In this document: positions 17,261 through 42,825 of the stretch, one piece after another | How positions within the stretch are numbered: position 1 is the stretch's first letter | Layout of the letters: the number at the start of each line of letters is the position of its first letter | Assembly (NCBI GenBank): GCA_964368535.1 | Contig: CAYJBC010000001.1 | Span: 9,800-59,999, forward strand | From: an uncultured Muribaculaceae bacterium | GTDB lineage: Bacteria > Bacillota_I > Bacilli_A > RF39 > UBA660 | Length of the DNA: 50,200 nucleotides | Reading direction: 5' to 3' | The notes under the pieces: model-generated | What the model saw: the letters and a program-made list of their open reading frames with translations, nothing else | What the model was told of the DNA's origin: nothing | The model's database searches: none | Program-made: the position numbers and the translations under genes

Positions 17261-18595
17261 CTATTCTACTACATAAGGGCTGTATTCTGCCCCAACTCCA
17301 CTAGTTATACTTTCTTTATTTATACATATAACTGGAACTACATTTTTAGATTCACTTATTTGTACTTTATTAAGTAATCCTAATTCATTTTTAACAAATG
17401 CTACATCACTTACATGTCCATTATATGTAAGATAGAAAAAATCGCTATTCTCTGTATTTATAAAATCAAATACATTAGGAATTCCTATTTTTGCTATAGT
17501 TTCTTCACTATAAATACTAGTAAAATCATTATTATTATCGTCATTAATTAATCCAGTAGAAAAACTACAATCTACTAATTTATCTTTGTATGGCAAACTA
17601 TTATAATAATCATTATTTAAATAGTAACCAATATTATCTCTTGAATTTATATCATACTTAGTATTTGTATCACCAAAACTTCTTGTATCAGTTAAATTTT
17701 CTGTTTTAGCCATTTTAATAGTTGTATCAGATTCTTCAAATACTCTGAATAAATCTTCTCCAAGTTCAACATAAGTATTTATGTAAGACTCTTCTTCAAT
17801 TTGTATTATATATGGGTTATCCTCTTCACCTTTACCTCTTAATAAAATAACATCTTTATCAAGTTTAATTACAGGTCTTACACCATATGAACCATATGAT
17901 TTATCTGATGATATATTTCCCTTGTCATCTACGTATAAATAATTACCATCATCATCTACTCCAAGTAACCAGTGGAAAGTATCATTATCAAGAAAACTTC
18001 CTTCTCCACCTGCTTTGATATAGTCTTCTGCTGATAATAATGAAATATTTTTTTCTGTTACGATATCAGTATCTGTAAATTCTGAATTTGAGAATTTTTG
18101 AACTATAATATCTTGTTTAATTAAATATTCATCTGAAATAGGCAATAGATTTTCAAATACACCACTGTTTTCTTTTTCAGTTATGTTTAACCAATTATAT
18201 ACATTACTTTCAGTATAACTTAGGTCATTTCCCCACATAAAAGTACTTACATTTGCATCACTTACCAATATTAATTCCTTATCATTTGTAATGCCTACTA
18301 TTCTAAATAATATATTGTTAAAACTAACATAATTATTATCTATTTCTCCTTTAAAAAAATATCCGTCTGTATCTTTATATAATCCGTTACCACTGGTAAC
18401 TAAACTATTTGAATTTATTACTCCTTGAGCTATAGATTTATCATAATTTTGTCTTGCTTCATGTTCTTCTATTGCATAATAAACTGCTCTTGATCCAAAA
18501 TAAATCGCTAATATTGATAACACTACAACACTTATTATATTAAATATTTTTTCTTTCTTTCCTATTTTAATTTTCTCTTTTTTCACCTTCGCCAT
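17261..18595 (-). CDS. Type-II membrane-anchored protein with two copies of the RPV..L...G.G...PY-terminated domain (distant relative of the C-modules of P1-P6)
   Basis: 444 aa. K-rich N-terminus plus a TM. DTDGYFFKGEIDNNYVSFNNILFRIVGI resembles the YYFRG..NNWV.FAG.YWRI motif of P4-P6. The internal sequence GVRPVIKLDKDVILLRGKGEEDNPYIIQ and the C-terminal VVPVICINKESITSGVGAEYSPYVVE resemble the P-family ends. It lacks the P-family N-module. Confidence 0.6.
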   Translation of the reverse strand: MAKVKKEKIKIGKKEKIFNIISVVVLSILAIYFGSRAVYYAIEEHEARQNYDKSIAQGVINSNSLVTSGNGLYKDTDGYFFKGEIDNNYVSFNNILFRIVGITNDKELILVSDANVSTFMWGNDLSYTESNVYNWLNITEKENSGVFENLLPISDEYLIKQDIIVQKFSNSEFTDTDIVTEKNISLLSAEDYIKAGGEGSFLDNDTFHWLLGVDDDGNYLYVDDKGNISSDKSYGSYGVRPVIKLDKDVILLRGKGEEDNPYIIQIEEESYINTYVELGEDLFRVFEESDTTIKMAKTENLTDTRSFGDTNTKYDINSRDNIGYYLNNDYYNSLPYKDKLVDCSFSTGLINDDNNNDFTSIYSEETIAKIGIPNVFDFINTENSDFFYLTYNGHVSDVAFVKNELGLLNKVQISESKNVVPVICINKESITSGVGAEYSPYVVE

Positions 18596-22554: not shown

Positions 22555-23664
22555 TTAATTTATAATTTCTTCCGTTACTATAAATATATCTACTTCTATT
22601 GTACTATTATTTTCAGTTTTTTTCAAAACTTTTTTTTCTTTAATATATTCTAAGTCGTCAAGTTTGTCTTCCATTTTCTCTTCTGATAGTTCTAATGCTT
22701 TGTTTAAAGCCTCATCTACTGTTAATGTTTTATATTTTTTAATTATTTCTTTTTGAATTTCAAGATGTAATTTGTAACCAAATAAATCAAATAATGTAAT
22801 ATAATCACTTTCATAATTTTCTATCCGACTATTTAATATTTGTGTTTTTTTATCTTCGTGTTCCCAAGAAAAATTATATCTTTTATAGTCCGTTTCGACG
22901 TATTCAAAATATTCAAAAGGAATGCTTAAACTTGTTTCGTACCATCTTTCTGCCTTAATTATCCCTTCTGCACACACTTCACTTTTTAATATATCGTTAT
23001 ATATTATTTGTCCACTTATTAGTAAATCTCCCTCACTTATATAATCACCTATTTTTACAACTGGAACTCCTTTTTTAACACTTATACTAGTTATCACGCC
23101 GCTTTCTTTTGCATATACATCGCAATAAGGCTCTTCTTCTGTTTCAACATTAATTATTCTTTCTTGTAACTTTATTATGTATTTCATACCTACTTTTTCA
23201 ATTTCTAACCATTCAATCCTATCTTTATATTTATCTAATATTTCATTTTTTATTGTATTAATTTCATCATAATTTTTATTGAAATTTAGGTTTTTTATTC
23301 CATAATATTTTAATTCCTCATAAATTAATGATCTTAGAGAATCATTTTGATGAACAACTTCTACTTCGATAATTAAATGTGTTAATATAATCATCAAAAT
23401 ACCTGAAATAACGATAACCATTGTATATAATTTATTTTTTTTTAGTAAATCAAAAATATTATTTATTCCTTCTTTTTTTACTATTTTAAATTTGTAACTT
23501 ACAATGTATTTTTTTATTCTTTTATACCCACTTACACTTACTTTTAGATACAGATAGTTATTTGTTTTTTTTGAGTCATAAATCTCTATATTTAAATCAT
23601 TTAATTTTCTGATTAGTTTGTAAAAATTACTAGTTTTAGTTCTAATCCATATATTTTTATTCAT
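22555..23664 (-). CDS. yqfD: Sporulation protein YqfD
   Basis: Single TM near residue 90. GVITSISVKKGVPVVKIGDYISEGDLLISG is typical of YqfD. Start is ATG 23664 or TTG 23670, overlapping the end of yqfC. Confidence 0.82.
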   Translation of the reverse strand: MNKNIWIRTKTSNFYKLIRKLNDLNIEIYDSKKTNNYLYLKVSVSGYKRIKKYIVSYKFKIVKKEGINNIFDLLKKNKLYTMVIVISGILMIILTHLIIEVEVVHQNDSLRSLIYEELKYYGIKNLNFNKNYDEINTIKNEILDKYKDRIEWLEIEKVGMKYIIKLQERIINVETEEEPYCDVYAKESGVITSISVKKGVPVVKIGDYISEGDLLISGQIIYNDILKSEVCAEGIIKAERWYETSLSIPFEYFEYVETDYKRYNFSWEHEDKKTQILNSRIENYESDYITLFDLFGYKLHLEIQKEIIKKYKTLTVDEALNKALELSEEKMEDKLDDLEYIKEKKVLKKTENNSTIEVDIFIVTEEIIN

Positions 23665-23902
23665 AATCAAAATTTACACTTTCTACTAAACCATCTATTA
23701 GTACTTCGTTATTGAATAATTTTTTTACTATAAGTTTTTCTCCTTTTATTATAAGTTTGAATAATTCAAATTTAAATATTAAATTTTGATCTGAAAATTT
23801 AATTATTGTTTCATAATTAAATAAATGAATTTTTTCGTCATATATAGATATAAAATATTTTTGGTCATATAAAAAGTTTTTTATATTGTTTATTATATTC
23901 AT
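23657..23902 (-). CDS. yqfC: Sporulation protein YqfC (YabP/YqfC family)
   Basis: 81 aa. The pattern KIHLFNYETIIKFSDQNLIF...LIIKGEKLIVKKLFNNEVLIDGLVESVNF and the position upstream of yqfD. Confidence 0.72.
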   Translation of the reverse strand: MNIINNIKNFLYDQKYFISIYDEKIHLFNYETIIKFSDQNLIFKFELFKLIIKGEKLIVKKLFNNEVLIDGLVESVNFDYE

Positions 23903-23923
23903 TTTATCACCTTATTAATAATA

Positions 23924-23949
23924 TGAAAAAAAGCAAAATATTTGCTTTA
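23924..23949 (-). terminator. Weak AT-rich terminator-like hairpin after P1
   Basis: Minus strand reads AAAGCAAA-TAT-TTTGCTTT then a T-run. The P1 stop codon is in the stem. Only two G-C pairs. Confidence 0.4.
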
Positions 23950-25452
23950 TATATCTATTCTAAACGGATTTTCTTCAGCACCTGAACCACTTTTTAATAT
24001 AATCTCTGACTTTAAATAAAACACTGGTCTTATATATAGTGAGTTTGTAACACTATAGCCTCCTGATATAGCTCCTGAGCTGGAAATTGGATGTATATAT
24101 CCATTCGAAGCATATGGCGTTATTGTCCATTCAAATTGATTAATGAACATCCAGTTATTATCTTTATATTCGGTGTTGTTTTCTTGTTCACTTTGTTTTA
24201 GATTCCATAAATTTGGTGCTGCCGCATACAAATAGTCATATGCATTCATAATTGCTATATTATATGTACTAACTGTTTGTGCTTGTACTTCATCTTCATA
24301 CACATCTTGCGCTACTCCTGTAGTGGGATGCGTTAATTCATTAATATTATATGTTGATGCAATTATCATACTTTTATATTTTTCTCCAAACGTATCATAA
24401 AACGTGGTGTTTAAATAATTATTTGACCAAGCATCATCACTTACATTGTTTACATCTGTACCTTCCCATAAATTATTGCTTGATGTATGGTATCTCATTT
24501 GATCTCCGTTATCAACTATATTATTTAAGTTATAATCTATAGGAGTATTTTTTATTAGTTTAATTTTGTTTTCATATATTCCTAATATACGATACATATT
24601 GTCATCTGGACATATTTCATCGTCACTACCAAAACAAACATAATTATGAACAACATCATTGCCGCCTGAATATCTATAATTACCGTCTTCAGTGCTATTC
24701 AATAATCCAGGATCGTGTTTTATCAATGATGGAATCATATTGCTATTGTCTGATAGACATTGTGCCATTTTATCGCCTATGCAATTGTTTTCAACAGTGT
24801 TAGTATCTTGACTTAAAATTAACGTGCTATTTAGAGTTTTTCCAGTGTTACTACTTTGATCTGCATCATGATTTATAAATATTACTTCCGCCTCCCAATT
24901 ATGTGTAATTCCAGTTACTGAATCTGTTGTTTCAATTGTATAATTATTTGCTATAGTGAACATGCCAGTAACCGTTGTAATATCAAACCCTGATTGAGAA
25001 ACACCAGCTTTATCAAGAACTGTTTTGTGAGTTAATCCAGTAATTGAAGTCACTTCTTCGTTTGTTGGAGATATTATTTTCAGTAATATTTCTGGTATAT
25101 CTGTCGATTGTGTATATAAGTAATTATTATTATTAATGTTAAAATATACGTTGTACTTATCTGAAGCTGAACCAGCACTAGAATTTGCTGTCAACTTAGC
25201 TGTTGAAGTTGTTGATGCACTTAAAGTACCATGTCCTGACGAAAAATTTTCTATTGAAGCAACTAAATTAATATCTGCACCAGGGGTTAATTTTAATGAT
25301 TCTGATTTTGATGTAGTAACATTTATGTCTGTATTTGCTGGCGTTGCAATTTGCACTACAAAAAAACCAAATGATACACTTAATGTTATAATACTAATAA
25401 CTAATATTATTATTAGTATTGTATTTTTTTTAGTTTTATTTAATTTTATCAT
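23947..25452 (-). CDS. Paralog P1: conserved N-module (possible TasA/camelysin-like, SipW-type signal) plus class-A four-Cys C-module
   Basis: 501 aa. N-terminus KLNKTKKNTILIIILVISIITLSVSFGFFVVQ. Family motifs: LKLTPGADINL, AGSASDKYNVYF, IPEILLKII, GFDITT, HNWEAEVIFINHDADQSSNTGK. Class-A motifs: C..(7)..C, YRYSG, YVCFGSDDEICPDDNMYRILG. C-terminus RPVFYLKSEIILKSGSGAEENPFRIDI. Confidence 0.6.
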   Translation of the reverse strand: MIKLNKTKKNTILIIILVISIITLSVSFGFFVVQIATPANTDINVTTSKSESLKLTPGADINLVASIENFSSGHGTLSASTTSTAKLTANSSAGSASDKYNVYFNINNNNYLYTQSTDIPEILLKIISPTNEEVTSITGLTHKTVLDKAGVSQSGFDITTVTGMFTIANNYTIETTDSVTGITHNWEAEVIFINHDADQSSNTGKTLNSTLILSQDTNTVENNCIGDKMAQCLSDNSNMIPSLIKHDPGLLNSTEDGNYRYSGGNDVVHNYVCFGSDDEICPDDNMYRILGIYENKIKLIKNTPIDYNLNNIVDNGDQMRYHTSSNNLWEGTDVNNVSDDAWSNNYLNTTFYDTFGEKYKSMIIASTYNINELTHPTTGVAQDVYEDEVQAQTVSTYNIAIMNAYDYLYAAAPNLWNLKQSEQENNTEYKDNNWMFINQFEWTITPYASNGYIHPISSSGAISGGYSVTNSLYIRPVFYLKSEIILKSGSGAEENPFRIDI

Positions 25453-25461
25453 ATAACCTCT

Positions 25462-26907
25462 TTACATATCTATTCTAAACGGATTAGCTATTTTTCCGTT
25501 ACCATTTACAATTAGTACACTTTCATTCAAATAAAATACTGGTCTAGTATCTAATGAAGTGTTGTAATGATTTTGGTATACTCCACCACTATTGGAAATA
25601 ATAAATGGATAAGTTGTATCTTTAGAATTAATTGTCCATTCTTTAATTCCTGAAAACATCCAAGATAAATGATCATATGAATAAAAATATGATAACTTAG
25701 GTGGAGTAGCTTTTTTCCAATAACTTTCAGGAATAGTGTAAGTATAATCGCTTGTATTCATCAAACCTATTTTATTAGTTAATAATATATTTTTTTCTGC
25801 TGCTGATGCTACTGCCATAGTGTAATCTTGAGAATATATTGTTCCCACCTTATATTCATAATCTACAATCATATTCTGATATTTGCTGTTTATAGAATTA
25901 TAGAAATCATTATTTAAATATGATCTTAAAGAGGAATTTTCAAAATATGTTGCTCCAGTTGCATTCCACGGTAAAACACCTATACTAGTTTGTTTAATTA
26001 ATTTCACTTTATTATCAAATACACCCATTATACGGTACATATCAGCTTCAGAGCATACTTCTTCTTCGCTGCCAAAACATACATAATTATAATTTATTGT
26101 TTCACTATCTCCTGAGTATCTATAACTATTATCTAAGATGCTATATTGAAGATTTTCAGAGTGATGAATCATACCTTCTTGAATATTAATATTGTTAGTT
26201 AAACATTTTGAAAAACTAGTGTTGGCACAAATATCTCCAAGAGAAACATCATCAGTTTGAATTAATACTTTTGCCTCCATATTTTTATTTGAATTTAATG
26301 ATTGATCATGACTTAAGTTAACAAATTGCAATTCAAAATTCCAACTTTGAGAAGTTCCCGTTGCAATATTATTAGTGCTAATCAAGTATTCAGTTGCAAT
26401 AGCATAATATCCTGTTTTATTTGTAATATCAAAACCCGTTATATCTACATTGTTTGCATCTGCTACTGTTACATATTCTAAACCTTTAATTTCTTCTATC
26501 AAATCACCTTCAGGATTAGTAATTTTTAATATAATTTCTGGAGTCAAAACGCTTTGACTATATTCATACTCATTATTCAATATATTAAAATAAACGTTGT
26601 AATTTGCAGTAGCAGATCCTGCTTCGGTGCTAGGAAACAATTCTACTAGTGATGTAGAATTTGAACTTAGACTTCCATCTCCTGCAGAAAAATTTGATAA
26701 AGTCGCATGTAAATTAATAGTTTCACCTGGATTTATTTTTAAAAATTCATCTTGAAGAGATGTAAGCTCTAAATCTGTTTTTGCTGGTGCAGTTACCTGA
26801 ACAACAAAAAAAGCGAATGATACTAAAATACATGATATACTTAAAATAAGTACAATCAACAATATAATATTTTTTTTTGATTTATTAAAATTTAATGTTT
26901 TTTTCAT
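25462..26907 (-). CDS. Paralog P2: same N-module plus class-A C-module
   Basis: 481 aa. N-terminus ...KSKKNIILLIVLILSISCILVSFAFFVVQ. Motifs: LKINPGETINL, AGSATANYNVYF, TPEIILKIT, GFDITN, SQSWNFELQFVNLSHDQS, CFGSEEEVCSEADMYRIMG. C-terminus RPVFYLNESVLIVNGNGKIANPFRIDM. Sits 9 nt upstream of P1. Confidence 0.6.
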   Translation of the reverse strand: MKKTLNFNKSKKNIILLIVLILSISCILVSFAFFVVQVTAPAKTDLELTSLQDEFLKINPGETINLHATLSNFSAGDGSLSSNSTSLVELFPSTEAGSATANYNVYFNILNNEYEYSQSVLTPEIILKITNPEGDLIEEIKGLEYVTVADANNVDITGFDITNKTGYYAIATEYLISTNNIATGTSQSWNFELQFVNLSHDQSLNSNKNMEAKVLIQTDDVSLGDICANTSFSKCLTNNINIQEGMIHHSENLQYSILDNSYRYSGDSETINYNYVCFGSEEEVCSEADMYRIMGVFDNKVKLIKQTSIGVLPWNATGATYFENSSLRSYLNNDFYNSINSKYQNMIVDYEYKVGTIYSQDYTMAVASAAEKNILLTNKIGLMNTSDYTYTIPESYWKKATPPKLSYFYSYDHLSWMFSGIKEWTINSKDTTYPFIISNSGGVYQNHYNTSLDTRPVFYLNESVLIVNGNGKIANPFRIDM

Positions 26908-26925
26908 TCTTTTACTCTTTTCTTC

Positions 26926-28362
26926 TTACAATCTAAATGGATTGTCAATTGTTCCATTACCACTTTTATACATTACACTTTCTGTTAAATAGAAACTTGG
27001 TCTTACACTTTGTTCTTGGGAAAAATCATGATATGTTAATAGTCCTGTCGACTGAAAACTAAACATTCTTTGCACATTATTTAGATCGTATATGGATATA
27101 ACCCATTCATCTAATCCAGAAAAAATCCACTCTGCCTCATCACTATAATATCTACTCCAATTTTCCGGGTCGGTAGAATATGCTAAATCAGTTAAACTTA
27201 TAAGCATAATTTTATTATTAACAGTTTTATAGGTATTTTCTATTCTAGATATTTCATAAGATGAATTTGCATTATCATGCGGATTTTTTGGAAAAGACCC
27301 ATATTTCCAATCGTAACTAGAAACATAATTTTGATATTTAGTTGGAAATGAATTATAAAAATCATTATTTAAATATTGTTCTAAGGATGAATTATTGTGG
27401 ATTTTACTAACTTCTGTATCCCAAGGTAATGATAAATTTGTTGTATTCTTCACGATTTTAACTAAACCGTCATATACTCCTATGATTCTATATAAATTAT
27501 CACTAGGACACTCCTCTTCGTCACTACCAAAGCATAAATAGTTATGTGATACTATTTCGTCTATTCCAGCAAATCTATAATTATCATCTAATGCTCCATT
27601 TGTTAAAGTGTTAGTATGATGATATAAACCATAGTATTGAGCATAATTATCAGTTATACAACTAGCAAGTGATTTTGTGTCACAATTTGGTGTAAATTTA
27701 TATTCAGCAGCACTAAATATTATCTTTGATTCCATCAATTTTTCTGTGTTACCCGATTGGTCACTATCTAAATTTAAAAATATTAATTCAAAATCCCATG
27801 TATGTGTAGTGCCTATTTCAGTATTGGTAGTGTCTATAGGTTGATTTTTGACTAATTCTAAGACTCCTTTTTGTGTTGTCATATCAAATCCCGAATGTTC
27901 CACACCATTTTTATCCATGACTGTTACATAATCCAATTTAGTGATATTATTTATCAGATTTCCATCCTGATTCGTAATTTTCAATAGAATTTCAGGCGTA
28001 CTATCTTTTTGAGTATAAACATAATTATTTTTTTCTACTTGATAATATATACTATATGAACTAGTAGCGCTCCCTGTTTCGTTATCCGGCAGTAAAGTCA
28101 CTGTTGGACTAGTTGTATCATTTAACGAACCAGTAGTAGTTGAAAAATTTTCTATTGTTGCATGGATACTTAAATCTCCACCAGGACTGAATATCAATTC
28201 CTCTTCTTGAGATGTTTCAGCCTTTAGACTGGTTCTTGAAGGTGAACTGACTTGAGAAATAAAGAATGCAAAAGTAGCTGCAACAACTGCTATTCCTATC
28301 AACACAATAAATATTATTACAACTATTTTTCTTTTAATTAAAAACGTTTTGAGTTTGTTCAT
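26926..28362 (-). CDS. Paralog P3: same N-module plus class-A C-module
   Basis: 478 aa. N-terminus ...IGIAVVAATFAFFISQ. Motifs: FSPGGDLSI, TGSATSSYSIYY, TPEILLKIT, GFDMTT, THTWDFELIFLNLDSDQSGN, CFGSDEEECPSDNLYRIIG. C-terminus VRPSFYLTESVMYKSGNGTIDNPFRL. AAGGAG SD. Confidence 0.6.
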   Translation of the reverse strand: MNKLKTFLIKRKIVVIIFIVLIGIAVVAATFAFFISQVSSPSRTSLKAETSQEEELIFSPGGDLSIHATIENFSTTTGSLNDTTSPTVTLLPDNETGSATSSYSIYYQVEKNNYVYTQKDSTPEILLKITNQDGNLINNITKLDYVTVMDKNGVEHSGFDMTTQKGVLELVKNQPIDTTNTEIGTTHTWDFELIFLNLDSDQSGNTEKLMESKIIFSAAEYKFTPNCDTKSLASCITDNYAQYYGLYHHTNTLTNGALDDNYRFAGIDEIVSHNYLCFGSDEEECPSDNLYRIIGVYDGLVKIVKNTTNLSLPWDTEVSKIHNNSSLEQYLNNDFYNSFPTKYQNYVSSYDWKYGSFPKNPHDNANSSYEISRIENTYKTVNNKIMLISLTDLAYSTDPENWSRYYSDEAEWIFSGLDEWVISIYDLNNVQRMFSFQSTGLLTYHDFSQEQSVRPSFYLTESVMYKSGNGTIDNPFRL

Positions 28363-28383
28363 TTAAATTCTCCTTTATTCTTG

Positions 28384-29955
28384 TTAGTTTACTGTATATG
28401 GTTCATTCCAAGTACCATTGCCCGTTACAATTGTATTGCTTTTGAGTGAAATCACTGGTCTAACACCTTTACTAGAGTTTACAGTTGTTCCTCCGTTGTT
28501 TCCATTTGAATATATAACATGGTTTTCTACCCTTGAACTAAGATTGTATTCTTTTGGAGATAATGTCCAATAATCTAACGGCGCCAATAAATAGTGATTT
28601 TGATTATCCCAATACATACCTGATTGCAAAACTTCATTAAATGATATCGTTGAAACAGGAAAAGTTAATGATGAATTTCCGAAAGTGTCATCATTAACTG
28701 TATACGCATCTAGTTTATTAGGACAAGTTAATGCAACGTCACTTGATCCAAAATATTGTGGTCTAAAACTTATATATGCAACAGGTGTTTGGCGGCTGTA
28801 ATCAGTGTAGGCTGTACGATCACCACAAAATAATGTGTCAGAAACATAACTATGGAATCCTGAATTATAAATATTAGTTTCATACCACTGGTCAATATAT
28901 GTTTTTATATTACTGGATTCTTTAAGACCGTGAAAATCATCATCGTACATATAACCAGCATATTTTGCTGTTGTATAACTTGCATTAAACAGCGAATTAC
29001 CAATACTTGTTTCGTTACTAAGCATCGTTACTTTTTGATCTTCAGTCGGCTTAGTTGGGCCGCTATATATCATACGAATACTACCATCACCATTTATTCT
29101 TATTATTCTCCAGTAAAATCCAGCGAAATACACCCAGTTATCATCAACAGCCCCTCTGAAATAATAACTAATCCCGTAATCATCTTGGCTTGCAAATACA
29201 CCTTCATCTACAGTAGCGTTTACTGAAAAATCTGGTTCAGTTTTTGATAAAATAGCTTTTTCGCCATCATTGTTTTCTAATATTTTGTAACTTAACAAGC
29301 TTTGATAGTCTTCTTTTTGTAGAATAAAAAATGAAGATAAACTTTTATTTTTATTGGCATTTTGATCTGCATTGTAATTTACAAAGATTAATTCCACATT
29401 CCACGTTTGCGTAGTGCCTTCGGTTGCATTAGTTGTTTCAATTTGGTATTCACTGGCAATTTGTAAAAGTCCTATATATGTAGTTATGTCAAATCCTGAT
29501 AATTCTTCGCCGTCAGCATCCAATACAGTTTTGTGTGTTACCCCATCAATTAATTTTAATTCTTCACCACTTGGATTTGTTATTTTTACCAGTAATTCTG
29601 GAGTTTCTGTATTTTGCGTATAAATAAATTCATTAGTTTGGATATGCAAGTAAACATTATAGTTCGAAGACGCAGACCCTGCTTCTACATCCGGAATTAG
29701 TTTTGCTGTTGATGTAGCCACTGTGTTTATTGATCCACTGGTTTCATTAAAATTATTAACCGATGCAGAAAGGATCATTTCTTCTCCAGGTGTAAATGTT
29801 AAATTTTCTAAAACTCCTGATGACAAATTAACATTTATTTCCTCAGCTGTATATAACTGTACAACAAAATATGCGAATGATACTGCTATTATCCCCACAC
29901 TTGCCACTAATACTATTAAAAGAATCATATTTTTTTTAGTCTTATTGAAATTCAT
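28384..29955 (-). CDS. Paralog P4: same N-module plus class-B C-module
   Basis: Start at ATG 29955 (MNFNKTKKNMILL...) behind AGGTGA. The track start at 29964 is a GTG inside the SD. Motifs: VSFAYFVVQ, FTPGEEMIL, AGSASSNYNVYL, TPELLVKIT, GFDITT, TQTWNVELIFVNYNADQNANK. Class-B motifs: DDYGISYYFRGAVDDNWVYFAGFYWRIIRINGDGSIRMIYSG, FCGD...CPNK, YWTLSP. C-terminus GVRPVISLKSNTIVTGNGTWNEPYTVN. Confidence 0.6.
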   Translation of the reverse strand: MNFNKTKKNMILLIVLVASVGIIAVSFAYFVVQLYTAEEINVNLSSGVLENLTFTPGEEMILSASVNNFNETSGSINTVATSTAKLIPDVEAGSASSNYNVYLHIQTNEFIYTQNTETPELLVKITNPSGEELKLIDGVTHKTVLDADGEELSGFDITTYIGLLQIASEYQIETTNATEGTTQTWNVELIFVNYNADQNANKNKSLSSFFILQKEDYQSLLSYKILENNDGEKAILSKTEPDFSVNATVDEGVFASQDDYGISYYFRGAVDDNWVYFAGFYWRIIRINGDGSIRMIYSGPTKPTEDQKVTMLSNETSIGNSLFNASYTTAKYAGYMYDDDFHGLKESSNIKTYIDQWYETNIYNSGFHSYVSDTLFCGDRTAYTDYSRQTPVAYISFRPQYFGSSDVALTCPNKLDAYTVNDDTFGNSSLTFPVSTISFNEVLQSGMYWDNQNHYLLAPLDYWTLSPKEYNLSSRVENHVIYSNGNNGGTTVNSSKGVRPVISLKSNTIVTGNGTWNEPYTVN

Positions 29956-30000
29956 ATGTTTCACCTATTATAAATTATACATTATATATCTTTTTTTTTC
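29956..30000 (-). promoter_or_regulatory. Candidate promoter and short leader of the P4-P1 operon
   Basis: Lies between the valS terminator and the P4 start. Minus strand reads ...GATATATAATGTATAATTTATAATAGGTGAAACATATG, with a TATAAT hexamer at 29979-29974 and the SD AGGTGA. It is loosely similar to the 32-nt box upstream of P5, P6 and the WG-like operon. Confidence 0.35.
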
Positions 30001-30032
30001 AATAAAAAAGCATTAAGATTTTATCTTAATGC
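30001..30032 (-). terminator. valS rho-independent terminator
   Basis: Perfect 9-bp stem GCATTAAGA/TCTTAATGC (30010-30018 and 30024-30032) with a 5-nt loop containing the TAA stop. Followed on the minus strand by TTTTTTATT. Confidence 0.7.
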
Positions 30033-32543
30033 TTCCAGTTCTTTTATTTCTTTTTCCAATGATTCTTTTTCTTTTTCTACTAATTCAACCGGAGCTTTTG
30101 ATATATAATTATCATTTGAAAGTAGTTTTTTTCTTCTTTCGATACTACTTTCTAATGATTTTACTTGTTTTTCTTTTAGAAGTATATCTTCTTCTGTCTC
30201 TTCTTTTTCAAAATATATTGTCATACCATATTCTTTAGTGAATACATCAAACGAAGTGATGTTTAAGGTGTTAGTTATAATATTGTTTTCTAGTTTTAAT
30301 ATTTTATTTATAAGTGAATAATCATTTTCTTTTGTAATTATTACTTTTAAATCGTTAGTTATTTTATTGTCTAACTTTACATTTCTAAACATTTTAATGA
30401 ATGAAATCATTTCATCAATTAAAGATTCTTCTTTTTTAAACATTAAATTTTTATCATACACTGGGTACTTTTCAATCATAATTGAATCTTCATTTTTAAC
30501 TGGTAACATATTATATATTTCCTCAGTAATAAATGGTGTAAATGGATGCATCAGTTTTAATATTTTATCCATTACATATATAAGTGTGTTTTTAGTAGAT
30601 ATTTTATCTAAACTAAATTTACTCATTTCTATATAGTTATCACAAAAATCTGACCATATAAAATTATATAATGTATTTCCTACTAAATTGAAATCATATT
30701 TTTCCATGTTTTTAGTAACTTCTTTTATAACTTTATTTAATTTAGTTAATATCCATTTATCTTTATTTTCTAAATCATTTAATTTTATTTCTTTTAATTC
30801 TTCAGTATTCATAAGAACGTATCTAGATGCATTCCATAATTTATTTAAAAAATTCCAAGATGATGCCACTTTATCAATATCAAATCTTAAGTCTAAACCA
30901 GCTGCACTATTAGTTGTTAAGAATAATCTAAGTGCATCTGTTCCATATTCTTTAATTACATCCATTGGATCTATTCCATTACCTAAACTTTTTGACATTT
31001 TACGCCCATCTTTATCCCTAATAAGTCCATGTATCAAACATTCTTTAAATGGTCTTTGATTAGTAAAATGTAGTCCTTGGAATGTCATACGATTTACCCA
31101 AAAAGGTATAATATCATAACCTGTAACTAGTACATTATTTGGGTAATATCTTTTATAATCATCTGTAATATTTGGCCAACCTAAAGTACTAAATGGCCAT
31201 AACGCTGATGAAAACCATGTATCTAGTACATCTGGATCTTGAACCCATCCATCACCTTCTGGAGCTTTATCTCCAACATAAACTTCTTCGCCATTATACC
31301 ATGCTGGTATTCTATGTCCCCACCATAATTGTCTTGATATACACCAGTCATAAGTTATTTCCATCCAGTGATTCATTATTTTTTCAAATCTCTCTGGAAC
31401 GAAATTTACTTTTGAATCTTTTTTCTTTTGATTTTCTAAAACTTTGTCAGCAAGTGGTCTCATTTTTACAAACCATTGTTTAGAAAGATATGGTTCAACT
31501 ACTGCGTTTGTTCTCTCGGAATGCCCTACACTATGCGTCATTTCTTCTATTTTAATAAGTAAATTGAGTCCCTTAAGCTTTTCAACTAATTTTTTTCTAG
31601 CATCAAAACGATCTAGCCCTGCGTACTCTAGTGCATTGTCATTCATTGTTCCATTTGCATTTATACACATAACTCTTTCTAAGTTATGTCTATTTCCTAC
31701 TTCAAAGTCATTTGGATCATGTGCAGGAGTTATTTTAACTACTCCAGTACCAAATTCAGGATCAGCATGAGAGTCGCCTACTACCGGTATTTTTTTACCC
31801 GATATAGGTAATATTACATATTTACCGATTAAACCCTTATATCTATCATCTTTTGGATTTACTGCTACTGCAGTATCTCCAAATAATGTTTCTGGTCTTG
31901 TAGTTGCTACTTCTAAATATTCTTGAGTTCCATCAATCATATACTTCAAATGATAAAATGCTCCAGTGATATCTTTATATATAACTTCCTCATTAGATAA
32001 GGCTGTCATTGCTTCAGGATCCCAGTTAATTATTCTTTCTCCTCGATAAATCAAACCTTCATTATACATTTTTATAAAAACTTCATTTACTGTTTGAGAC
32101 AATTCTTTATCTAGTGTAAATCTTTCTTTAGAATAACATAGTGAAAGACCCATTTTAGCCCATTGATTTCTTATATTTTCAGAATATTCTTCTTTCCATT
32201 TCCAAGCAATATCTAGCCAAGCATCTCTATCCATTTCTCTAGGATTAACACCTTCACTTTTAAGTTTTGCATCAACTTTGGCTTGAGTAGCAATTCCTGC
32301 ATGATCCATTCCAGCAAGCCACATTGCATCATAACCTTGCATTCTTTTGAATCTAATAAGAATATCTTGAATAGATGTATCCCATGCATGACCTAAATGA
32401 AGTTTACCGGTTACATTTGGTGGAGGTATAACTATTGAAAATGGTTCTTTTTCTTTTTTATCAGCTTCAAAATATTTATTTTTAAGCCAAAAATCATATT
32501 TGCCTTCTTCTACTTTAGTATGATTATATTTTGTTTCTAACAT
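30021..32543 (-). CDS. valS: Valine--tRNA ligase
   Basis: 840 aa. PPPNVTGKLHLGHA (HIGH), KMSKSLGN (KMSKS), a CP1 editing region and a C-terminal coiled coil. Confidence 0.97.
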   Translation of the reverse strand: MLETKYNHTKVEEGKYDFWLKNKYFEADKKEKEPFSIVIPPPNVTGKLHLGHAWDTSIQDILIRFKRMQGYDAMWLAGMDHAGIATQAKVDAKLKSEGVNPREMDRDAWLDIAWKWKEEYSENIRNQWAKMGLSLCYSKERFTLDKELSQTVNEVFIKMYNEGLIYRGERIINWDPEAMTALSNEEVIYKDITGAFYHLKYMIDGTQEYLEVATTRPETLFGDTAVAVNPKDDRYKGLIGKYVILPISGKKIPVVGDSHADPEFGTGVVKITPAHDPNDFEVGNRHNLERVMCINANGTMNDNALEYAGLDRFDARKKLVEKLKGLNLLIKIEEMTHSVGHSERTNAVVEPYLSKQWFVKMRPLADKVLENQKKKDSKVNFVPERFEKIMNHWMEITYDWCISRQLWWGHRIPAWYNGEEVYVGDKAPEGDGWVQDPDVLDTWFSSALWPFSTLGWPNITDDYKRYYPNNVLVTGYDIIPFWVNRMTFQGLHFTNQRPFKECLIHGLIRDKDGRKMSKSLGNGIDPMDVIKEYGTDALRLFLTTNSAAGLDLRFDIDKVASSWNFLNKLWNASRYVLMNTEELKEIKLNDLENKDKWILTKLNKVIKEVTKNMEKYDFNLVGNTLYNFIWSDFCDNYIEMSKFSLDKISTKNTLIYVMDKILKLMHPFTPFITEEIYNMLPVKNEDSIMIEKYPVYDKNLMFKKEESLIDEMISFIKMFRNVKLDNKITNDLKVIITKENDYSLINKILKLENNIITNTLNITSFDVFTKEYGMTIYFEKEETEEDILLKEKQVKSLESSIERRKKLLSNDNYISKAPVELVEKEKESLEKEIKELEALR

Positions 32544-32544
32544 T

Positions 32545-33246
32545 TTAATTCCTACTTTCTATTTGTTTTTGAATTGTATTTACCACTTTTTTAAATTTAT
32601 CATTGAATTTTGGTAAATTTTCTTTATATATTACTGATAGTTCTTCATAAACTTCTTCAAAATTTACATCATTTATATAAGCAAGCATCGCAGCCCATTC
32701 ATCATTTGTGTTTTTTACATTTTTGTAGTCCACTATTTTATGATTTACAATGTCTTCTTCGACTTCTTTACTTATAGCATCATTTGTCATTTCTTCTTCA
32801 ATTAAATTAACGAAATACTTAATAATACTTAATTTATCCATATCCCTAATATATTTTGCAAAAAATATTTTTCTTGCATCGTTTGTCTTTTCAATTTCTT
32901 TTTTATTATGATTTTTAATTGCATACTTAATTACTTCGTAATCTTCTTCATTATCCCAAAAATTTTTTATGTATCCTTCTTCAAATAATACGACCACTGA
33001 ATAATCAGCATGATCCATATTTATATTATCAAAATAAGAACCAAACATTTCTAGTTGTTTAAATCTACCAAAATCATGCAATAAACCAATTAATTTGACT
33101 AACTCTTTATCTTGTTCATTCAATTTTAATATGTCTGCATATTTTATACATGTATTCATTACATCTATACTATGATTATATTTATGTTTAATTTTTTCAT
33201 TTTGCATATCAAAATCTTTTAAATAATTTTCAAAACTTTCTAACAT
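32545..33246 (-). CDS. HD-domain phosphohydrolase-like protein, first gene of the T-box/valS operon
   Basis: 233 aa. H..(N)..HS...V and GLLHDFGRF...DHADYS form an HD metal-binding pattern. The stop lies 1 nt before the valS ATG. Confidence 0.7.
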   Translation of the reverse strand: MLESFENYLKDFDMQNEKIKHKYNHSIDVMNTCIKYADILKLNEQDKELVKLIGLLHDFGRFKQLEMFGSYFDNINMDHADYSVVVLFEEGYIKNFWDNEEDYEVIKYAIKNHNKKEIEKTNDARKIFFAKYIRDMDKLSIIKYFVNLIEEEMTNDAISKEVEEDIVNHKIVDYKNVKNTNDEWAAMLAYINDVNFEEVYEELSVIYKENLPKFNDKFKKVVNTIQKQIESRN

Positions 33247-33254
33247 TTGTCCTC

Positions 33255-33445
33255 TTTTCCAAAATAAAAAGATGATACCAAAGGGCGCAATAAGCGCGGT
33301 ACCACCTTAATTTTTATCTTTTGATATAACGCATCATTTACGATTTAAACTCAATTTACAACCTTCAACTGCTTACACTATTAGTTTACACCATACACTA
33401 ACTCTCTATAAGTTTAACAATTTACTCCTTAAATGTCCTCGTTTA
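33255..33445 (-). promoter_or_regulatory. T-box riboswitch leader (tRNA-sensing transcription attenuator)
   Basis: Minus strand carries AGAGAG (33408-33403) and the T-box sequence AAUUAAGGUGGUACCGCG (33312-33295). These are followed by the GC-rich hairpin GCGC-UUAUU-GCGC, extended by GGUACC/GGUAUC pairing, then UCUUUUUAUUUU, and then the SD and ATG of the HD gene. The 5' boundary is approximate. Confidence 0.85.
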
Positions 33446-33471
33446 ACAATATTATTTTAACAAATTATTAA

Positions 33472-34263
33472 TTAAATTTCAAGTAGTTCCCCATCGACAT
33501 ATATTCCGTTGTCTTCTACAGTTACTTCTTCAGCAGTAATGTATACATATTTTTCTTCTATATCTTCATAAATATAAGTAGCTAAATTAGTAGTTATTAC
33601 AAAATAATTTTCTGTTATATACAAATCATTTATATTATATGACCATAAATATTCTAAACCATTATAATCATATATTTTATAGTATTCATCCTCTGTAGAT
33701 ATTATAAATCTATCATTATACGTATATATCTCTTCATATGTGTCAGTAATTGATTCATTTTCATTATTTACTAAATACTGTCCAGAATCATCTTGTACTA
33801 AAAATTCAGTTGCATCCTTTTGCATTATTATATCTTGGTAAACAAAAGGAACTACCACTTTCATTTTATCTAAGTCAAATACTCCATATTTATCACTTAC
33901 AAGTCCAATTAAATATTTTTCAGACAAATTATCATCCAAATATTTTATATCATCTATTGTTGTTATATCATTTCCTGAAACAAAATCATATAAATAATAT
34001 TTATCGTTATCACTTATGAAAGCATAATTACCATAGGTAGCATTAGGGAATTTACAATCTTCACTTTTACATGTGTAAGTTCCTAATAATTCTTCATTGT
34101 TATAAAAATACAGTTTTCCTTCGTATACACTTTTCATTTCTGGATTATCTATGGTACTTATATTAAATATTTTTAAATAAGCACCATAGATTGTCATTAT
34201 ACTAAATATAACTAATAGAACAACTATAATAATATATATTACTTTTTGATTGCTTTTTATCAT
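33472..34263 (-). CDS. Membrane-anchored WG-like (YG-variant) repeat protein
   Basis: 263 aa. N-terminal TM. DKYGVFDLDKMKVVVPFVYQDI resembles KWG/WG repeats. ATGA overlap with the upstream gene. Confidence 0.5.
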   Translation of the reverse strand: MIKSNQKVIYIIIVVLLVIFSIMTIYGAYLKIFNISTIDNPEMKSVYEGKLYFYNNEELLGTYTCKSEDCKFPNATYGNYAFISDNDKYYLYDFVSGNDITTIDDIKYLDDNLSEKYLIGLVSDKYGVFDLDKMKVVVPFVYQDIIMQKDATEFLVQDDSGQYLVNNENESITDTYEEIYTYNDRFIISTEDEYYKIYDYNGLEYLWSYNINDLYITENYFVITTNLATYIYEDIEEKYVYITAEEVTVEDNGIYVDGELLEI

Positions 34264-36320
34264 AGTAAATCGCCATTAGAATCAAAACTATATGTTTGAA
34301 CTACTTTTTTATTAGCGTCTATTAATTCTATTTTAAATCCAGCTGATCCATTGTCTACGAAATTAAAATCATCTGTTGTTACAGTTACTTCTTTAGATAA
34401 TATATTTACTTTACCAGATGTATATTTATATACACCAAGTGTTTTGCCATCTGCCGCTAAAAAGACATTATCACCAAGCATTATTTCTGTAGCAGGGTTA
34501 GATATTATACTGCCATTCATACTGTATACCAAATATTTACCATCACTTGATTTAACTTTGATATATCCATCTACAAAATCTATTACTTCATTTTTAATAC
34601 TTGTAGATGAACCAGTTAATTCTTTGCCGGCAGAATCATATATTTTATATTCTCCATCACTATTTTTAGCAAGATATCCATTATTTAATATTTCTATACT
34701 AGTATATTCAAATGGTATAAATCCTTTAACATCACTACTTGTCATATTAACAATACCATATAACTTTTTACTATTCTGAGCCATTATCAATAAATTACTT
34801 GTAGTAGCTGAAATTATTTGATCTTCACTATTGTAATAGCCAACATCAACTTTAATGTATGTAGCTACATCTTTATTATCTTCTAAGTTATATAATATAA
34901 TATTGTCATTAGCTGATGAAGAGCTAGCATCATTTATAAATACATACTTATTATTATATATTGGTATGTACCCTAATGTATCTTTTGAATTTGTTCTATT
35001 TAATAATTTACTTTCTTTAGCTATAAAACATGTAGTAAATTCAGTTGTTTCTTCAGTTACATTATTTTCATTTTCACACTCATAAGATCCTATAACTTCT
35101 GTTTTATCAGCATCTTGGTAAATATAAATTATTCCATCTATATAATTTATATATTCATATTTAGAATTAATATTAGCTTCGTATGTATTAATACTTTCTT
35201 CTTTATTATCTATTGTAATTTTTAAAAGACCTTCTCCATCTAAAACTATTTTATAGCTTTCTTCACTACTTAGTGTTTTATAACTTTTATCTAGGACTGC
35301 TTCCTTTATGTATTTTTCGCTAGATAATTCGTATCCAATTTCATTAAGTTTATTTCCTATGTGGTTTACAATAAATAGTTTTGAATCAGATACGTATTCT
35401 GCATAGTTACCAGTTATATTTGCATAATCAAAGCTGCCATCTAATACTCTTTCTTTTGTATAATTTATTATATAATAATTAGTAGCTTTTAAGACTATCA
35501 AATTTTCATCATTATAACTAACTATTTGATCTGATATATCTGATACTGCAGATGTTCCATCATTTTTTAACAAGCCATATTTACCATCTTTTTCATAAGA
35601 AATATTTTCTTTGCCATCTAATGATCCTAAGTAAGAATATTCAAAAGGTACTAAATCTACTTTTCCTGTTTCATCGAATGAAATAATCCCAAATAAATCT
35701 TCTTCATTTTGAAGTATTAAAGCACTATCTCCATATTTTTTAGCGGTTTTATATTCACCTAAAATTTCTTCATTTTTTATATCATATAATAATAGTTTCT
35801 TATCTTCATCATTCTCGAAGTCGTAAATAAACACAAAATTATCTTCATAAGTCGGTATACTAAACTCCATTAGATTTCCATCTTCATCATAATATTTTGA
35901 ATTATTTAATACTTCGTCTTGATTATAATAACCAATTAAACATTTTGTTTCATCTTGGTTTTCACATTCATAAGTTCCAAGTTCTTTATCACTCTTATCT
36001 AAAAACACTAATGTTCCATTTTCGTATCTATAGTTATTCATTTCCAGTATAATATCTGGAGTTTCATCAGTTTTTTTATCCTCATCATCCTTAAACACCA
36101 CGAAGTATAAAATTACTCCTGCAATGACTAGAGTGACAAAAATTATCGCAGATATAAAAATTATTTTTTGGTTTTTACTCATTTTTTTAAACCAATTTCT
36201 TTTATTTTTCTTTATTTTTTTGTATTCTTCATGTTCAGATGTAACTTCTTCTATTTCGGCATTTACTATTTCTTCTTCCTCTTTAACTATTTGTTCAATT
36301 TCATTATTATATTCTTCCAT
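34260..36320 (-). CDS. Membrane-anchored WG-like repeat protein with an acidic cytoplasmic N-terminus
   Basis: Start at ATG 36320 (MEEYNNE...), with the SD GAGG inside the 6-codon track extension. E/K-rich N-terminus then a TM. Repeats include DGKYGLLKNDGTSAV, LFGIISFDETGKVDLVPFEYSYL and LYGIVNMTSSDVKGFIPFEYTSI. Confidence 0.5.
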   Translation of the reverse strand: MEEYNNEIEQIVKEEEEIVNAEIEEVTSEHEEYKKIKKNKRNWFKKMSKNQKIIFISAIIFVTLVIAGVILYFVVFKDDEDKKTDETPDIILEMNNYRYENGTLVFLDKSDKELGTYECENQDETKCLIGYYNQDEVLNNSKYYDEDGNLMEFSIPTYEDNFVFIYDFENDEDKKLLLYDIKNEEILGEYKTAKKYGDSALILQNEEDLFGIISFDETGKVDLVPFEYSYLGSLDGKENISYEKDGKYGLLKNDGTSAVSDISDQIVSYNDENLIVLKATNYYIINYTKERVLDGSFDYANITGNYAEYVSDSKLFIVNHIGNKLNEIGYELSSEKYIKEAVLDKSYKTLSSEESYKIVLDGEGLLKITIDNKEESINTYEANINSKYEYINYIDGIIYIYQDADKTEVIGSYECENENNVTEETTEFTTCFIAKESKLLNRTNSKDTLGYIPIYNNKYVFINDASSSSANDNIILYNLEDNKDVATYIKVDVGYYNSEDQIISATTSNLLIMAQNSKKLYGIVNMTSSDVKGFIPFEYTSIEILNNGYLAKNSDGEYKIYDSAGKELTGSSTSIKNEVIDFVDGYIKVKSSDGKYLVYSMNGSIISNPATEIMLGDNVFLAADGKTLGVYKYTSGKVNILSKEVTVTTDDFNFVDNGSAGFKIELIDANKKVVQTYSFDSNGDLL

Positions 36321-36352
36321 ATAGTACCTCACTATCATAATTATATTATCAT
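36321..36352 (-). promoter_or_regulatory. Conserved 32-nt promoter/leader box, copy 1 (WG-like operon)
   Basis: Minus strand reads ATGATAATATAATTATGATAGTGAGGTACTAT followed by ATG. TGaTAATAT looks like an extended -10. ATGATAGTGAGG supplies the SD. Confidence 0.5.
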
Positions 36353-36394
36353 AAAAAAAACAAAAAATAAATATGTTGTCTTACATATTTATTT
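36353..36394 (-). terminator. P5 terminator
   Basis: 12-bp AT-rich stem AAATAAATATGT/ACATATTTATTT (36365-36376 and 36383-36394) with a 6-nt loop. Followed on the minus strand by TTTGTTTTTTTT. Confidence 0.6.
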
Positions 36395-37986: not shown

Positions 37987-38018
37987 ACATATCCTCACTA
38001 TCATATTAATATTATCAT
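37987..38018 (-). promoter_or_regulatory. Conserved 32-nt promoter/leader box, copy 2 (P5)
   Basis: Minus strand reads ATGATAATATTAATATGATAGTGAGGATATGT followed by ATG. Confidence 0.5.
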
Positions 38019-38058
38019 AATTAAATAAAAAAATAAACATGTTAATTTATATATATTT

Positions 38059-39219: not shown

Positions 39220-39980
39220 TTTTTGCTCCTTATAATTCTTTTTTTTGTTGCATTGAATGCATAGTGAACAAACACATATATCGAATATATTAAATGTAAT
39301 TTTTCTACTTTTCTATATATATACCACGTTCTTTTTATGGCTTTTAATTTATTTGATGACAATGAATTATTATGTACTCTATAATATGTAAGGCTTCTAG
39401 ATATTCCATAAACATAATCCTCTTTTTTTAATACATTTAGCCAAGTAGCAAAATCTTGTCCTCTTTTTATGTCTGGCATTTTCAATATTTTTTTATTTAT
39501 TTTTTTTATATTAACCATAACTGTTGATGGGCATATAATAGTGTTTTTCAAAAGTTGATTGTAATTTATTTTTTGGGGAATTTTTACTATTTTTTGTGTT
39601 TTATCACCATTTGCTTTGATGAATTCATATCTTGTAAATGTGAAATTTAAATTATTTTTGATCATTATATCTAATTGAGTTTTTAATTTATCTTTGTGCC
39701 ATACATCATCTGCATCTAGAAATGTTATATATTCTCCTGTTGCTTTTTTTAATGCAATATTTCTTGCTTTAGCAACACCCATATTAGTTTTTAAATTAAT
39801 TAAAAATATTTTATCTGTCAAATTTTTTTCTATTATTTTTTTACTGTTGTCAGTTGAGCAATCATTTACAATAATGATTTCAAAATTTTGATAACTTTGA
39901 TTTATAACTGATAATATTGTTTCTTGTATATACTTTTCGTCATTATGTACTGGTATAATTACACTTATTAATTTTTTCAT
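39216..39980 (-). CDS. Family-2 glycosyltransferase (GT-A fold)
   Basis: 254 aa. ISVIIPVHNDEKYIQETILSVINQSYQNFEIIIVNDCSTDNS and the DADD (DxD) motif. No obvious TM. ATGA overlap with the upstream gene. Confidence 0.88.
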   Translation of the reverse strand: MKKLISVIIPVHNDEKYIQETILSVINQSYQNFEIIIVNDCSTDNSKKIIEKNLTDKIFLINLKTNMGVAKARNIALKKATGEYITFLDADDVWHKDKLKTQLDIMIKNNLNFTFTRYEFIKANGDKTQKIVKIPQKINYNQLLKNTIICPSTVMVNIKKINKKILKMPDIKRGQDFATWLNVLKKEDYVYGISRSLTYYRVHNNSLSSNKLKAIKRTWYIYRKVEKLHLIYSIYVFVHYAFNATKKRIIRSKK

Positions 39981-42753: not shown

Positions 42754-42785
42754 ATTATACCTCGCTATCATGATAATTTTATCAT
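42754..42785 (-). promoter_or_regulatory. Conserved 32-nt promoter/leader box, copy 3 (P6 operon)
   Basis: Minus strand reads ATGATAAAATTATCATGATAGCGAGGTATAAT followed by ATG. TGaTAAAAT looks like an extended -10. This copy also contains the palindrome ATGATAA-AA-TTATCAT. Confidence 0.5.
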
Positions 42786-42825
42786 AAAATAATAGAAAAA
42801 TATATATTATTATTTGCTTTTATTC

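Follow-up and report, generated by a model that had tools for sequence, protein, structure and literature searches.

Tandem paralogs with DUF6273-type heads and an undescribed N-terminal module, probably surface-displayed, in an uncultured gut bacterium of the RF39 type

Introduction

The DUF6273 fold has been described as a C-type-lectin-like receptor-binding domain that is diversified by diversity-generating retroelements (DGRs), and it occurs in gut-phage DGR targets and receptor-binding proteins, the 'tentaclins' (PMC10743442). A domain assigned to DUF6273 also forms the N terminus of the IgA peptidase of Thomasclavelia ramosa, deposited as PDB entry 9qa6 (PMC12402451). Here we analyse a contig of an uncultured bacterium placed in the order RF39 (CAYJBC010000001.1), over a stretch of 50,200 nt that we call the window, in which four consecutive genes, P4-P3-P2-P1, and two more distant paralogs, P5 and P6, encode proteins with heads of this kind behind an N-terminal module (N-module) of their own. 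We consider it likely, with a probability of about 0.68, that the four genes are co-transcribed, that they encode exported, surface-displayed binding proteins with a common base and one of two classes of DUF6273-type head, and that they belong to a larger repertoire.

The modelled C-terminal half of P2 has the same fold as the IgA peptidase domain and the phage proteins, and the terminus of the P-family, '..RPV.YL.....G.G....P', is typical of DUF6273 domains. Unlike in those systems, the domain stands at the C terminus, behind the N-module, with no peptidase, phage-tail or DGR context, and it comes in two diverged head classes, the second of which is barely recognised by the Pfam model. The nearest parallels in overall organization are the Mycoplasma DUF285 families, the BspA-type leucine-rich repeat (LRR) families and the internalin-like families, which are likewise lineage-specific expansions with tandem arrays, a common anchor and variable binding domains; some N-module proteins themselves carry DUF285 or BspA LRR heads. 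In contrast to these Mollicutes and Firmicutes families, the P-family anchor consists of a new signal and a jelly-roll, not of a lipobox, LPXTG, choline-binding or SLH-type element. The kind of system is a familiar one, a lineage-specific modular surface-protein family whose head is already a Pfam DUF, and it is the N-module with its signal motif that is undescribed and un-modelled in databases.

Six paralogs with two classes of head

Pairwise BLASTP comparisons among P1-P6 gave E values from 1e-37 to 1e-114, far beyond chance. An earlier note on this DNA, made by eye, had counted P5 and P6 among the paralogs, and both are indeed present and align with P1-P4. The N-module, of about 215 aa, is 35-47% identical in every pair of the six. 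Past the N-module the proteins divide into two classes, with 33-39% identity among P1-P3, 35-41% among P4-P6 and 20-32% between the classes. Class 1 (P1-P3) is marked by four conserved cysteines and the signature YRYSG..NYVCFGS..C...YRI.G, and class 2 (P4-P6) by DDYG.SY.FRG..NW..FAG.YW.I.RI.GDG and one conserved cysteine pair. The head of P4 groups with those of P5 and P6, and both head classes are therefore represented in the tandem array. Across all six proteins 36 alignment columns are invariant, including GSA, Y..Y, PE, GFD.T, W, F.N...DQ, RP, L, G.G and P, and the conserved cysteine pairs are confined to the heads, in the part predicted to be exported.

A colinear set of motifs had been read across all six proteins. 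It holds for residues 1-215, that is, for the N-module, and for the last ~30 residues, with the corrections that the PG motif lacks its P in P5 and that P6 has SLA where S/T-F-A had been listed; it does not hold for the middle and C-terminal halves, which split into the two classes.

In the one genome available for this lineage, synonymous sites of the paralogs are saturated, and the sequences support an array of old, diverged paralogs, not of recent duplicates. The earlier note had taken the same view, and the 35-47% identities of the all-against-all comparison bear it out, as does direct inspection its report of about 20 identical nucleotides at the 3′ ends of P1 and P2, which are found as ATATCTATTCTAAACGGATT within 23950-23977 and 25465-25492. 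A neighbour-joining tree of the N-modules placed P1-P4 together. We do not claim that these four are monophyletic, because the N-module identities, P5 and P6 included, are too flat and the P4 head is of the P5/P6 class; duplication of P1-P4 in situ was rejected for the same reasons.

Fold and affinities of the heads

Two of the heads are recognised by the Pfam model for DUF6273 (PF19789), which has a gathering cut-off of 23.5 bits: P2 scores 26.8 bits and P3 26.1 bits. Among 74 class-1 homologs, 64 match the model at a permissive E<=1, the best at 9e-13. An AlphaFold2 (AF2) model of full-length P2, based on 74 homologs (mean predicted local distance difference test score, pLDDT, 84.5; predicted template modelling score, pTM, 0.73), comprises a helix at residues 9-39, a disordered linker, a beta-sandwich at residues 55-217 and an alpha/beta head at residues 246-481. 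When P2 was compared with the PDB by Foldseek, the sole significant match was 9qa6 (E=1.1e-6, probability 1.00, 283 columns), and by this modelled structure the P2 head is a DUF6273-equivalent fold. The full-length architecture had earlier gone unrecognised; this stands in that no characterised or named member was found, and falls for the C-terminal half, which is recognisable as DUF6273-type, with P2 and P3 above threshold.

Foldseek also connects the P2 head to phages: 33 proteins of the viral library match it at E<=1e-3, the top ones being gut-phage DUF6273 and receptor-binding proteins with E values of 4e-9 to 1e-6. These neighbours, and the fact that the literature knows DUF6273 chiefly from phage DGR targets, could mean that the genes are phage-derived, either receptor-binding proteins left behind by a prophage or decoys. 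We regard such an origin as very unlikely. PHROGs gave no significant match for P1-P6, and its two marginal ones (E=0.004-0.009) are to families of unknown function. The flanks hold valS, yqfC/yqfD, pyk and other core genes, and the window has no integrase, capsid or tail genes. Each copy has an N-terminal membrane or secretion signal, which is absent from virion proteins, and the gene order seen around P5 (family member, u692, u263, valS) is syntenic in four related metagenome-assembled genomes (MAGs). With no significant PHROG match and no phage neighbours, a prophage origin was rejected.

Less probable still is that the heads owe their diversity to a DGR, through mutagenic retrohoming instead of gene duplication. 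DUF6273 is a known DGR variable-protein domain (PMC10743442), and the least conserved segments of the class-1 heads, residues 361-380 and 401-460 in P2 numbering, fall in the C-terminal third of the head. Against this, no reverse-transcriptase Pfam family was found among the scanned open reading frames (ORFs) of the window, nor was there a long near-identical pair of template and variable repeats: the repeats within 22-44 kb are paralog stretches of 60-84% identity, with the sole exception of one 23-nt copy that is 91% identical. Since these scans turned up neither a reverse transcriptase nor such a repeat pair, we do not take the heads to be DGR targets here.

A seventh DUF6273-type protein of 444 aa is encoded on the minus strand of the window (Pfam DUF6273 E=4.7e-4). 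It has a plain N-terminal transmembrane anchor and two DUF6273-like repeats, without the N-module, and each repeat ends RPV/VPV..L....G.G....PY.

The N-terminal module and its putative export signal

The N-module consists of a K-rich n-region and a hydrophobic helix of ~20 residues, followed by a jelly-roll beta-sandwich of ~170 aa that is predicted confidently when the domain is modelled alone (pLDDT 87.9). In 233 of 266 family members the hydrophobic run ends in the motif G-[AV]-T-[YF]-A↓[YF]-F-x-A-Q-x-G, where the arrow marks a putative cleavage site. Of these members, 96% have G, S, T or A at position -5 and 96% have T or S at -3; A stands at -1 in 97%, Y or F at +1, and F at +2 in 96%. 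Only the figures for positions outside -2 to +2 are independent evidence, the positions in between having been covered by the regular expression that selected the members. The uncharged run ahead of the site has a median length of 20 residues, and the sequence beyond it is polar. P1-P6 carry (S/T)(F/L)(A/G)↓(F/Y)F at this point, which reads as a classic -3/-1 signal-peptidase pattern with an unusual aromatic residue at position P1′ and Phe at P2′. The N-module has no match in Pfam, NCBIfam, PHROGs or PDB sequences, the last searched to E<=10 with nothing returned except transmembrane-helix noise. The last 60 residues of P1-P6 hold no LPXTG-like motif and the first 45 no lipobox, and lipoprotein and LPXTG/sortase anchoring of these proteins was rejected on the absence of both.

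Beyond the window the N-module is widespread. An exhaustive hidden Markov model search, run against 1.84 billion representatives, detected it in 1034 clusters formed at 50% identity, 823 of them at E<=1e-10. In the best 150 of the 1034 matches it always starts within the first 22 residues of proteins that are 209-1254 aa long. Where the C-terminal part belongs to neither head class, the fusion partners are DUF285, ALK/LTK Gly-rich, fn3, BspA/LRR, Flg_new (Listeria-Bacteroides), dockerin and Ig-like domains, all of them extracellular binding modules. Genuine stand-alone N-module genes (~210 aa) also occur, namely P0152, which is present on 9 contigs, P0188, and P0203, which lies between frr and a gene with an fmt-like product; a further candidate, P0160, was discarded as the 5′ half of a split gene. 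Fusion to such varied partners, together with the stand-alone genes, points to a general N-terminal unit for export and display.

One related metagenome contig (L087, 4664-6286) encodes a protein of 540 aa in which a signal end of the same type, VVSYS↓FF, and a class-2 head enclose a different, Cys-rich middle part that replaces the N-module; the gene for this protein lies 30 nt downstream of the stand-alone gene P0152. Such an arrangement suggests that signal, base and head recombine independently.

From these features a surface or extracellular location of P1-P6 is strongly suggested, by the K-rich n-region, hydrophobic helix and small-x-small site, by the restriction of cysteine pairs to the heads and by the extracellular nature of the fusion partners. 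The earlier note had proposed a surface-protein family, with which the export-type N terminus of each paralog and the fusion of the N-module to extracellular binding domains elsewhere agree. In the arrangement that we favour, the Sec-type N terminus would direct export, and its ~20-residue helix would either be cut at the conserved (S/T)-x-(A/G)↓(F/Y)-F site or be kept as a membrane anchor. The jelly-roll would serve as the common base or stalk and the DUF6273 head as the ligand-recognising part, with host or mucus glycans, dietary polymers and other microbes as candidate ligands. P1-P4, P5, P6 and the seventh DUF6273 protein would then form a repertoire of two head classes, presumably differing in specificity.

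The signal also has a close parallel in TasA, CalY/camelysin and BsaA, with which it shares the K-rich n-region, a Gly near -5, T-x-A, an aromatic residue and Phe at P2′. As in TasA-type subunits, archaeal bundling pili and cannulae, a jelly-roll directly follows the signal and ~210-aa stand-alone forms exist. The N-module might accordingly be a subunit that assembles itself into a fibre or matrix in the manner of SipW/TasA systems, with its signal cut at T-x-A↓Y-F by a dedicated archaeal-type signal peptidase; the freed N-terminal segment would act as a donor strand linking jelly-roll domains, the stand-alone modules would form the shaft and the head-bearing P1-P6 the adhesive tips. The aromatic P1′ and Phe P2′ residues at the conserved site are in keeping with this, a Phe at P2′ reportedly making TasA a poor substrate for LepB but a substrate for SipW (PMC10269814). 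Genuine stand-alone genes such as P0152 and P0203 count in its favour too, with the loss of P0160 from their number, as do the ~20 residues past the site, which are partly conserved and unstructured in the monomer model. Among ten homologs, five, and also the family consensus, gave sub-threshold matches to TIGR04088, the NCBIfam model for SipW-dependent-type signals (best 17.5 bits against a cut-off of 19; other homologs 8-13 bits, with only model positions 1-19 of 34 aligned); the consensus also grazes the models of TapA and BsaA. P1-P6 themselves, however, show no match to TIGR04088, and 74 family members gave no Peptidase_M73/TasA Pfam match at E<=1. An hhalign comparison with a TasA sequence sets SFAYF in register with TWAAF, but at a probability of 0.2% and with the signal peptide alone aligned. 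Foldseek returned weak matches to the TasA fibre 8aur (probability 0.77, template modelling score 0.17-0.30), archaeal CanA 9hdi (0.93, 0.35-0.38) and the bundling pili 7ueg (probability 0.60), all at E>1e-3 and with scores at the level of generic jelly-rolls.

A dedicated peptidase was sought by a motif scan of the window and 81 related loci and by tblastn with SipW and SipS sequences against the window and 82 loci. Two genes of SipS/LepB type came to light, and none resembling SipW did, either in the window or in the 1.3 Mb of related loci, a sample too small to exclude one; the scanned ORFs of the window include no signal-peptidase Pfam family. Unlike TasA-type subunits, moreover, most N-module proteins bear large C-terminal heads. 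The signal motif and the stand-alone modules make the fibre attractive, yet no test reached significance. Membership of the TasA/SipW family, sub-threshold by NCBIfam, Pfam, PDB sequences, hhalign and Foldseek alike, was rejected as anything other than a minority hypothesis, and we judge a fibre of this type unlikely. Marginally less likely again is its fullest form, in which the N-module would define a new system by which RF39-type gut Bacilli sort and assemble proteins, combining SipW-like cleavage, a donor-strand surface fibre and interchangeable tips (DUF6273, DUF285, LRR, Gly-rich, dockerin). If true, a SipW-cut donor-strand fibre would give a major gut lineage without cultured members, which reportedly has few classical surface-anchoring options, a display platform of a new, pilus-like Gram-positive kind.

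Several observations weigh against the reading that we prefer, of exported and surface-displayed binding proteins with DUF6273-type heads on a common base. P1 (20.4 bits) and P4 (19.1 bits, residues 455-509) score below the DUF6273 cut-off and P5 and P6 give no Pfam DUF6273 match, and what speaks for placing class 2 in DUF6273 is one weak match together with the C-terminal motif that the heads share. To our knowledge, no DUF6273 domain has a known ligand. The helix at residues 9-39 of the AF2 model runs through the putative cleavage site, and an uncleaved anchor fits equally well. Foldseek comparison of the N-domain with the PDB gave no match at E<=1e-3, and its role as base or stalk is suggested by its position only. 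Finally, the DUF6273 N-terminal domain of the IgA peptidase had no significant effect on catalysis (PMC12402451).

The gene array and its transcription signals

The window has a GC content of ~27%, and nearly every gene in it lies on the minus strand. Four consecutive minus-strand ORFs separated by 21, 18 and 9 nt had been described, and their coordinates agree (Table 1); each gap holds a purine-rich Shine-Dalgarno sequence. The mechanical ORF call for P4 begins at a GTG (28384-29964, 526 aa), and the ATG at 29955, which stands behind a GGTGA Shine-Dalgarno sequence, is the likelier start.

The earlier note had further set the array between the valS terminator with a promoter on the upstream side and a hairpin on the downstream side, and each of these elements can be read in the DNA. 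The valS hairpin is the sole strong terminator-like hairpin called in 23500-43000. Directly past it lies TTGAAA-17-TATAAT, which ranks first among 135 promoter-like sites in the same 19.5 kb (11 of 12 positions match) and sits ~20 nt upstream of the P4 Shine-Dalgarno sequence and ATG. The hairpin downstream of P1 went uncalled by the terminator scanner, which needs at least three GC pairs, and was read directly from the sequence. We infer that P4-P3-P2-P1 most likely form one transcription unit.

Table 1. Coordinates of the array, its signals and other features of the window
Feature	Position (strand)	Size	Description
P4	28384-29955 (-)	523 aa	From ATG; N-module and class-2 DUF6273-like head
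P3	26926-28362 (-)	478 aa	N-module and class-1 DUF6273 head; Shine-Dalgarno AGGAG
P2	25462-26907 (-)	481 aa	N-module and class-1 DUF6273 head; Shine-Dalgarno AAGAG; structure-modelled protein
P1	23947-25452 (-)	501 aa	N-module and class-1 DUF6273 head; Shine-Dalgarno AGAGG
P5	36394-37986 (-)	530 aa	From real ATG; paralog, class-2 head
P6	41200-42753 (-)	517 aa	From real ATG; paralog, class-2 head
valS intrinsic terminator	30008-30034 (-)		12-bp hairpin enclosing the valS stop codon, then T-run
Promoter of P4-P1 unit	29974-30002 (-)		Sigma-70-type, TTGAAA-17-TATAAT, directly past valS terminator
Probable array terminator	~23925-23946 (-)		Weak AT-rich 6-bp hairpin AGCAAA-TAT-TTTGCT and T7, ahead of yqfC Shine-Dalgarno
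valS	30021-32543		NCBIfam valS match, 1086 bits
yqfD	22555-23670		PF06898 and TIGR02876 match
yqfC	23657-23902	81 aa	ORF so labelled in the earlier note
Seventh DUF6273-type protein	17261-18595 (-)	444 aa	Transmembrane anchor, two DUF6273-like repeats
Shared 27-nt motif, copy 1	36327-36353 (-)	27 nt	Upstream of u692 ATG (36320)
Shared 27-nt motif, copy 2	37993-38019 (-)	27 nt	Upstream of P5 ATG (37986)
Shared 27-nt motif, copy 3	42760-42786 (-)	27 nt	Upstream of P6 ATG (42753)
Wzy_C/O-antigen-ligase-like membrane protein	39977-41212 (-)		Start overlaps P6 stop
GT2 glycosyltransferase	39216-39980 (-)
UDP-glucose/GDP-mannose dehydrogenase	38059-39219 (-)		Ends just before P5
u692 and u263	33472-36320 (-)		Transmembrane-anchored; gene ends overlap
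spoIIP	5521-6423		Sporulation gene
ORF	13-993 (-)	326 aa	No Pfam match
ORF	2061-2639 (-)	192 aa	No Pfam match

The state of these genes also bears on whether they are decaying, silent relics, which we rate about as improbable as diversification by a retroelement. Sequence by itself is no evidence of expression, and in one relative, L083, the gene is broken into two ORFs. Set against this are four intact ORFs of 478-523 codons in DNA of ~29% GC, a Shine-Dalgarno sequence at each gene, a near-consensus promoter for the array, and the 36 columns that are invariant in six paralogs, structural Gly, Pro, Trp and Cys residues among them.

Base composition changes over the array: GC is 0.29-0.32 in 24001-30000, which holds P1-P4, against 0.22-0.28 in the flanks, and the negative GC skew is much weaker there (-0.06 to -0.14) than in the flanks (~-0.23 to -0.35). 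Both shifts probably reflect the N/S/T-rich, K/E-poor composition of the proteins, not a foreign origin.

Distribution of the family

A search with the full-length proteins gave more than 2239 matches, the closest of them just 37-39% identical. No member is named in Pfam, NCBIfam, PDB sequences, PHROGs or the source annotations of the matches, and in the literature on DUF6273, RF39 adhesins, gene families, signal peptides and DUF285 no description of the family was found. The earlier impression that this was no characterised family of known function has thus come through the database searches, which turned up no named member.

Relatives are encoded on 556 stretches of species-representative genomes, several loci sharing one assembly. 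Their records name uncultured 'Bacilli' or 'Tenericutes' MAGs, Firmicutes bacterium CAG:460, Clostridium sp. CAG:609 and Candidatus Onthocola, and the hosts are probably RF39-like, uncultured low-GC gut Bacilli. In related MAGs, arrays of 2-5 copies in tandem occur, one of them, with three copies, lying upstream of rnc-smc in L075; elsewhere a lone copy is flanked by housekeeping genes, for instance by rpsB and tsf. In the four MAGs that keep the gene order around P5, valS is 68-70% identical to that of the window. None of the four carries an array after valS, and yqfC/yqfD had no match in any related locus fetched. The absence of an array after valS from these four MAGs makes the P4-P1 array lineage-specific as far as visible.

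RF39-like Bacilli are common in the gut and have reduced genomes. We know of no cultured representative of the group, nor of any account of how it attaches to host or food surfaces. A reduced display of surface proteins has been inferred in related orders without sortases by a study at the level of orders (PMC10868615). Given its at least 1034 clusters at 50% identity, the several copies that a genome carries and the seven proteins of DUF6273 type in this 50-kb window, the P-family is a strong candidate for the main surface-recognition repertoire of RF39-like Bacilli. The un-modelled N-terminal domain and its signal are now defined and could be added to databases. That the head fold is common to gut-phage receptor-binding proteins and an IgA-protease domain leads to the hypotheses that the heads bind glycans or immunoglobulins.

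Neighbouring genes

A 27-nt motif, TATGATAAWATNNNNATGATAGYGAGG, occurs exactly three times on the minus strand of the window, where 0.01 would be expected by chance, and each copy lies directly upstream of the real ATG of u692, P5 or P6. It appears to combine a shared extended -10 element, a short leader and a Shine-Dalgarno sequence, which suggests co-regulation. Its internal ATGs give rise to spurious 'MIVRY.M' N-terminal extensions in the mechanical ORF calls. The P4 promoter differs from this motif, and exact copies of the 12-nt core ATGATAGTGAGG are absent from 82 related loci.

The P6 stop codon overlaps the start of a gene for a Wzy_C/O-antigen-ligase-like membrane protein, which is followed by a family 2 glycosyltransferase (GT2) gene and a UDP-glucose/GDP-mannose dehydrogenase gene. 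The stretch 38059-41212 may be an operon that ties the surface proteins to a glycan pathway, possibly one of protein or wall glycosylation. A functional link between P5 or P6 and these three genes was rejected, the linkage not being conserved in 81 related loci.

Between P5 and valS, u692 and u263 encode proteins with repeated Y/W-G units that resemble beta-strands and with no significant Pfam match. In L009, L028, L059 and L073, where u692 is 31-35% identical, both genes keep their order relative to a family member and valS.

The occurrence of spoIIP and yqfC/yqfD in one window with the P-family fits a host from the mixed sporulating and non-sporulating orders RF39, RFN20 and ML615J-28 (PMC10868615). 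Two further minus-strand ORFs near the beginning of the window lack a Pfam match (Table 1); the 326-aa product of the first, with a Cys-containing N-terminal signal and a C-terminal transmembrane anchor, is a probable surface protein.

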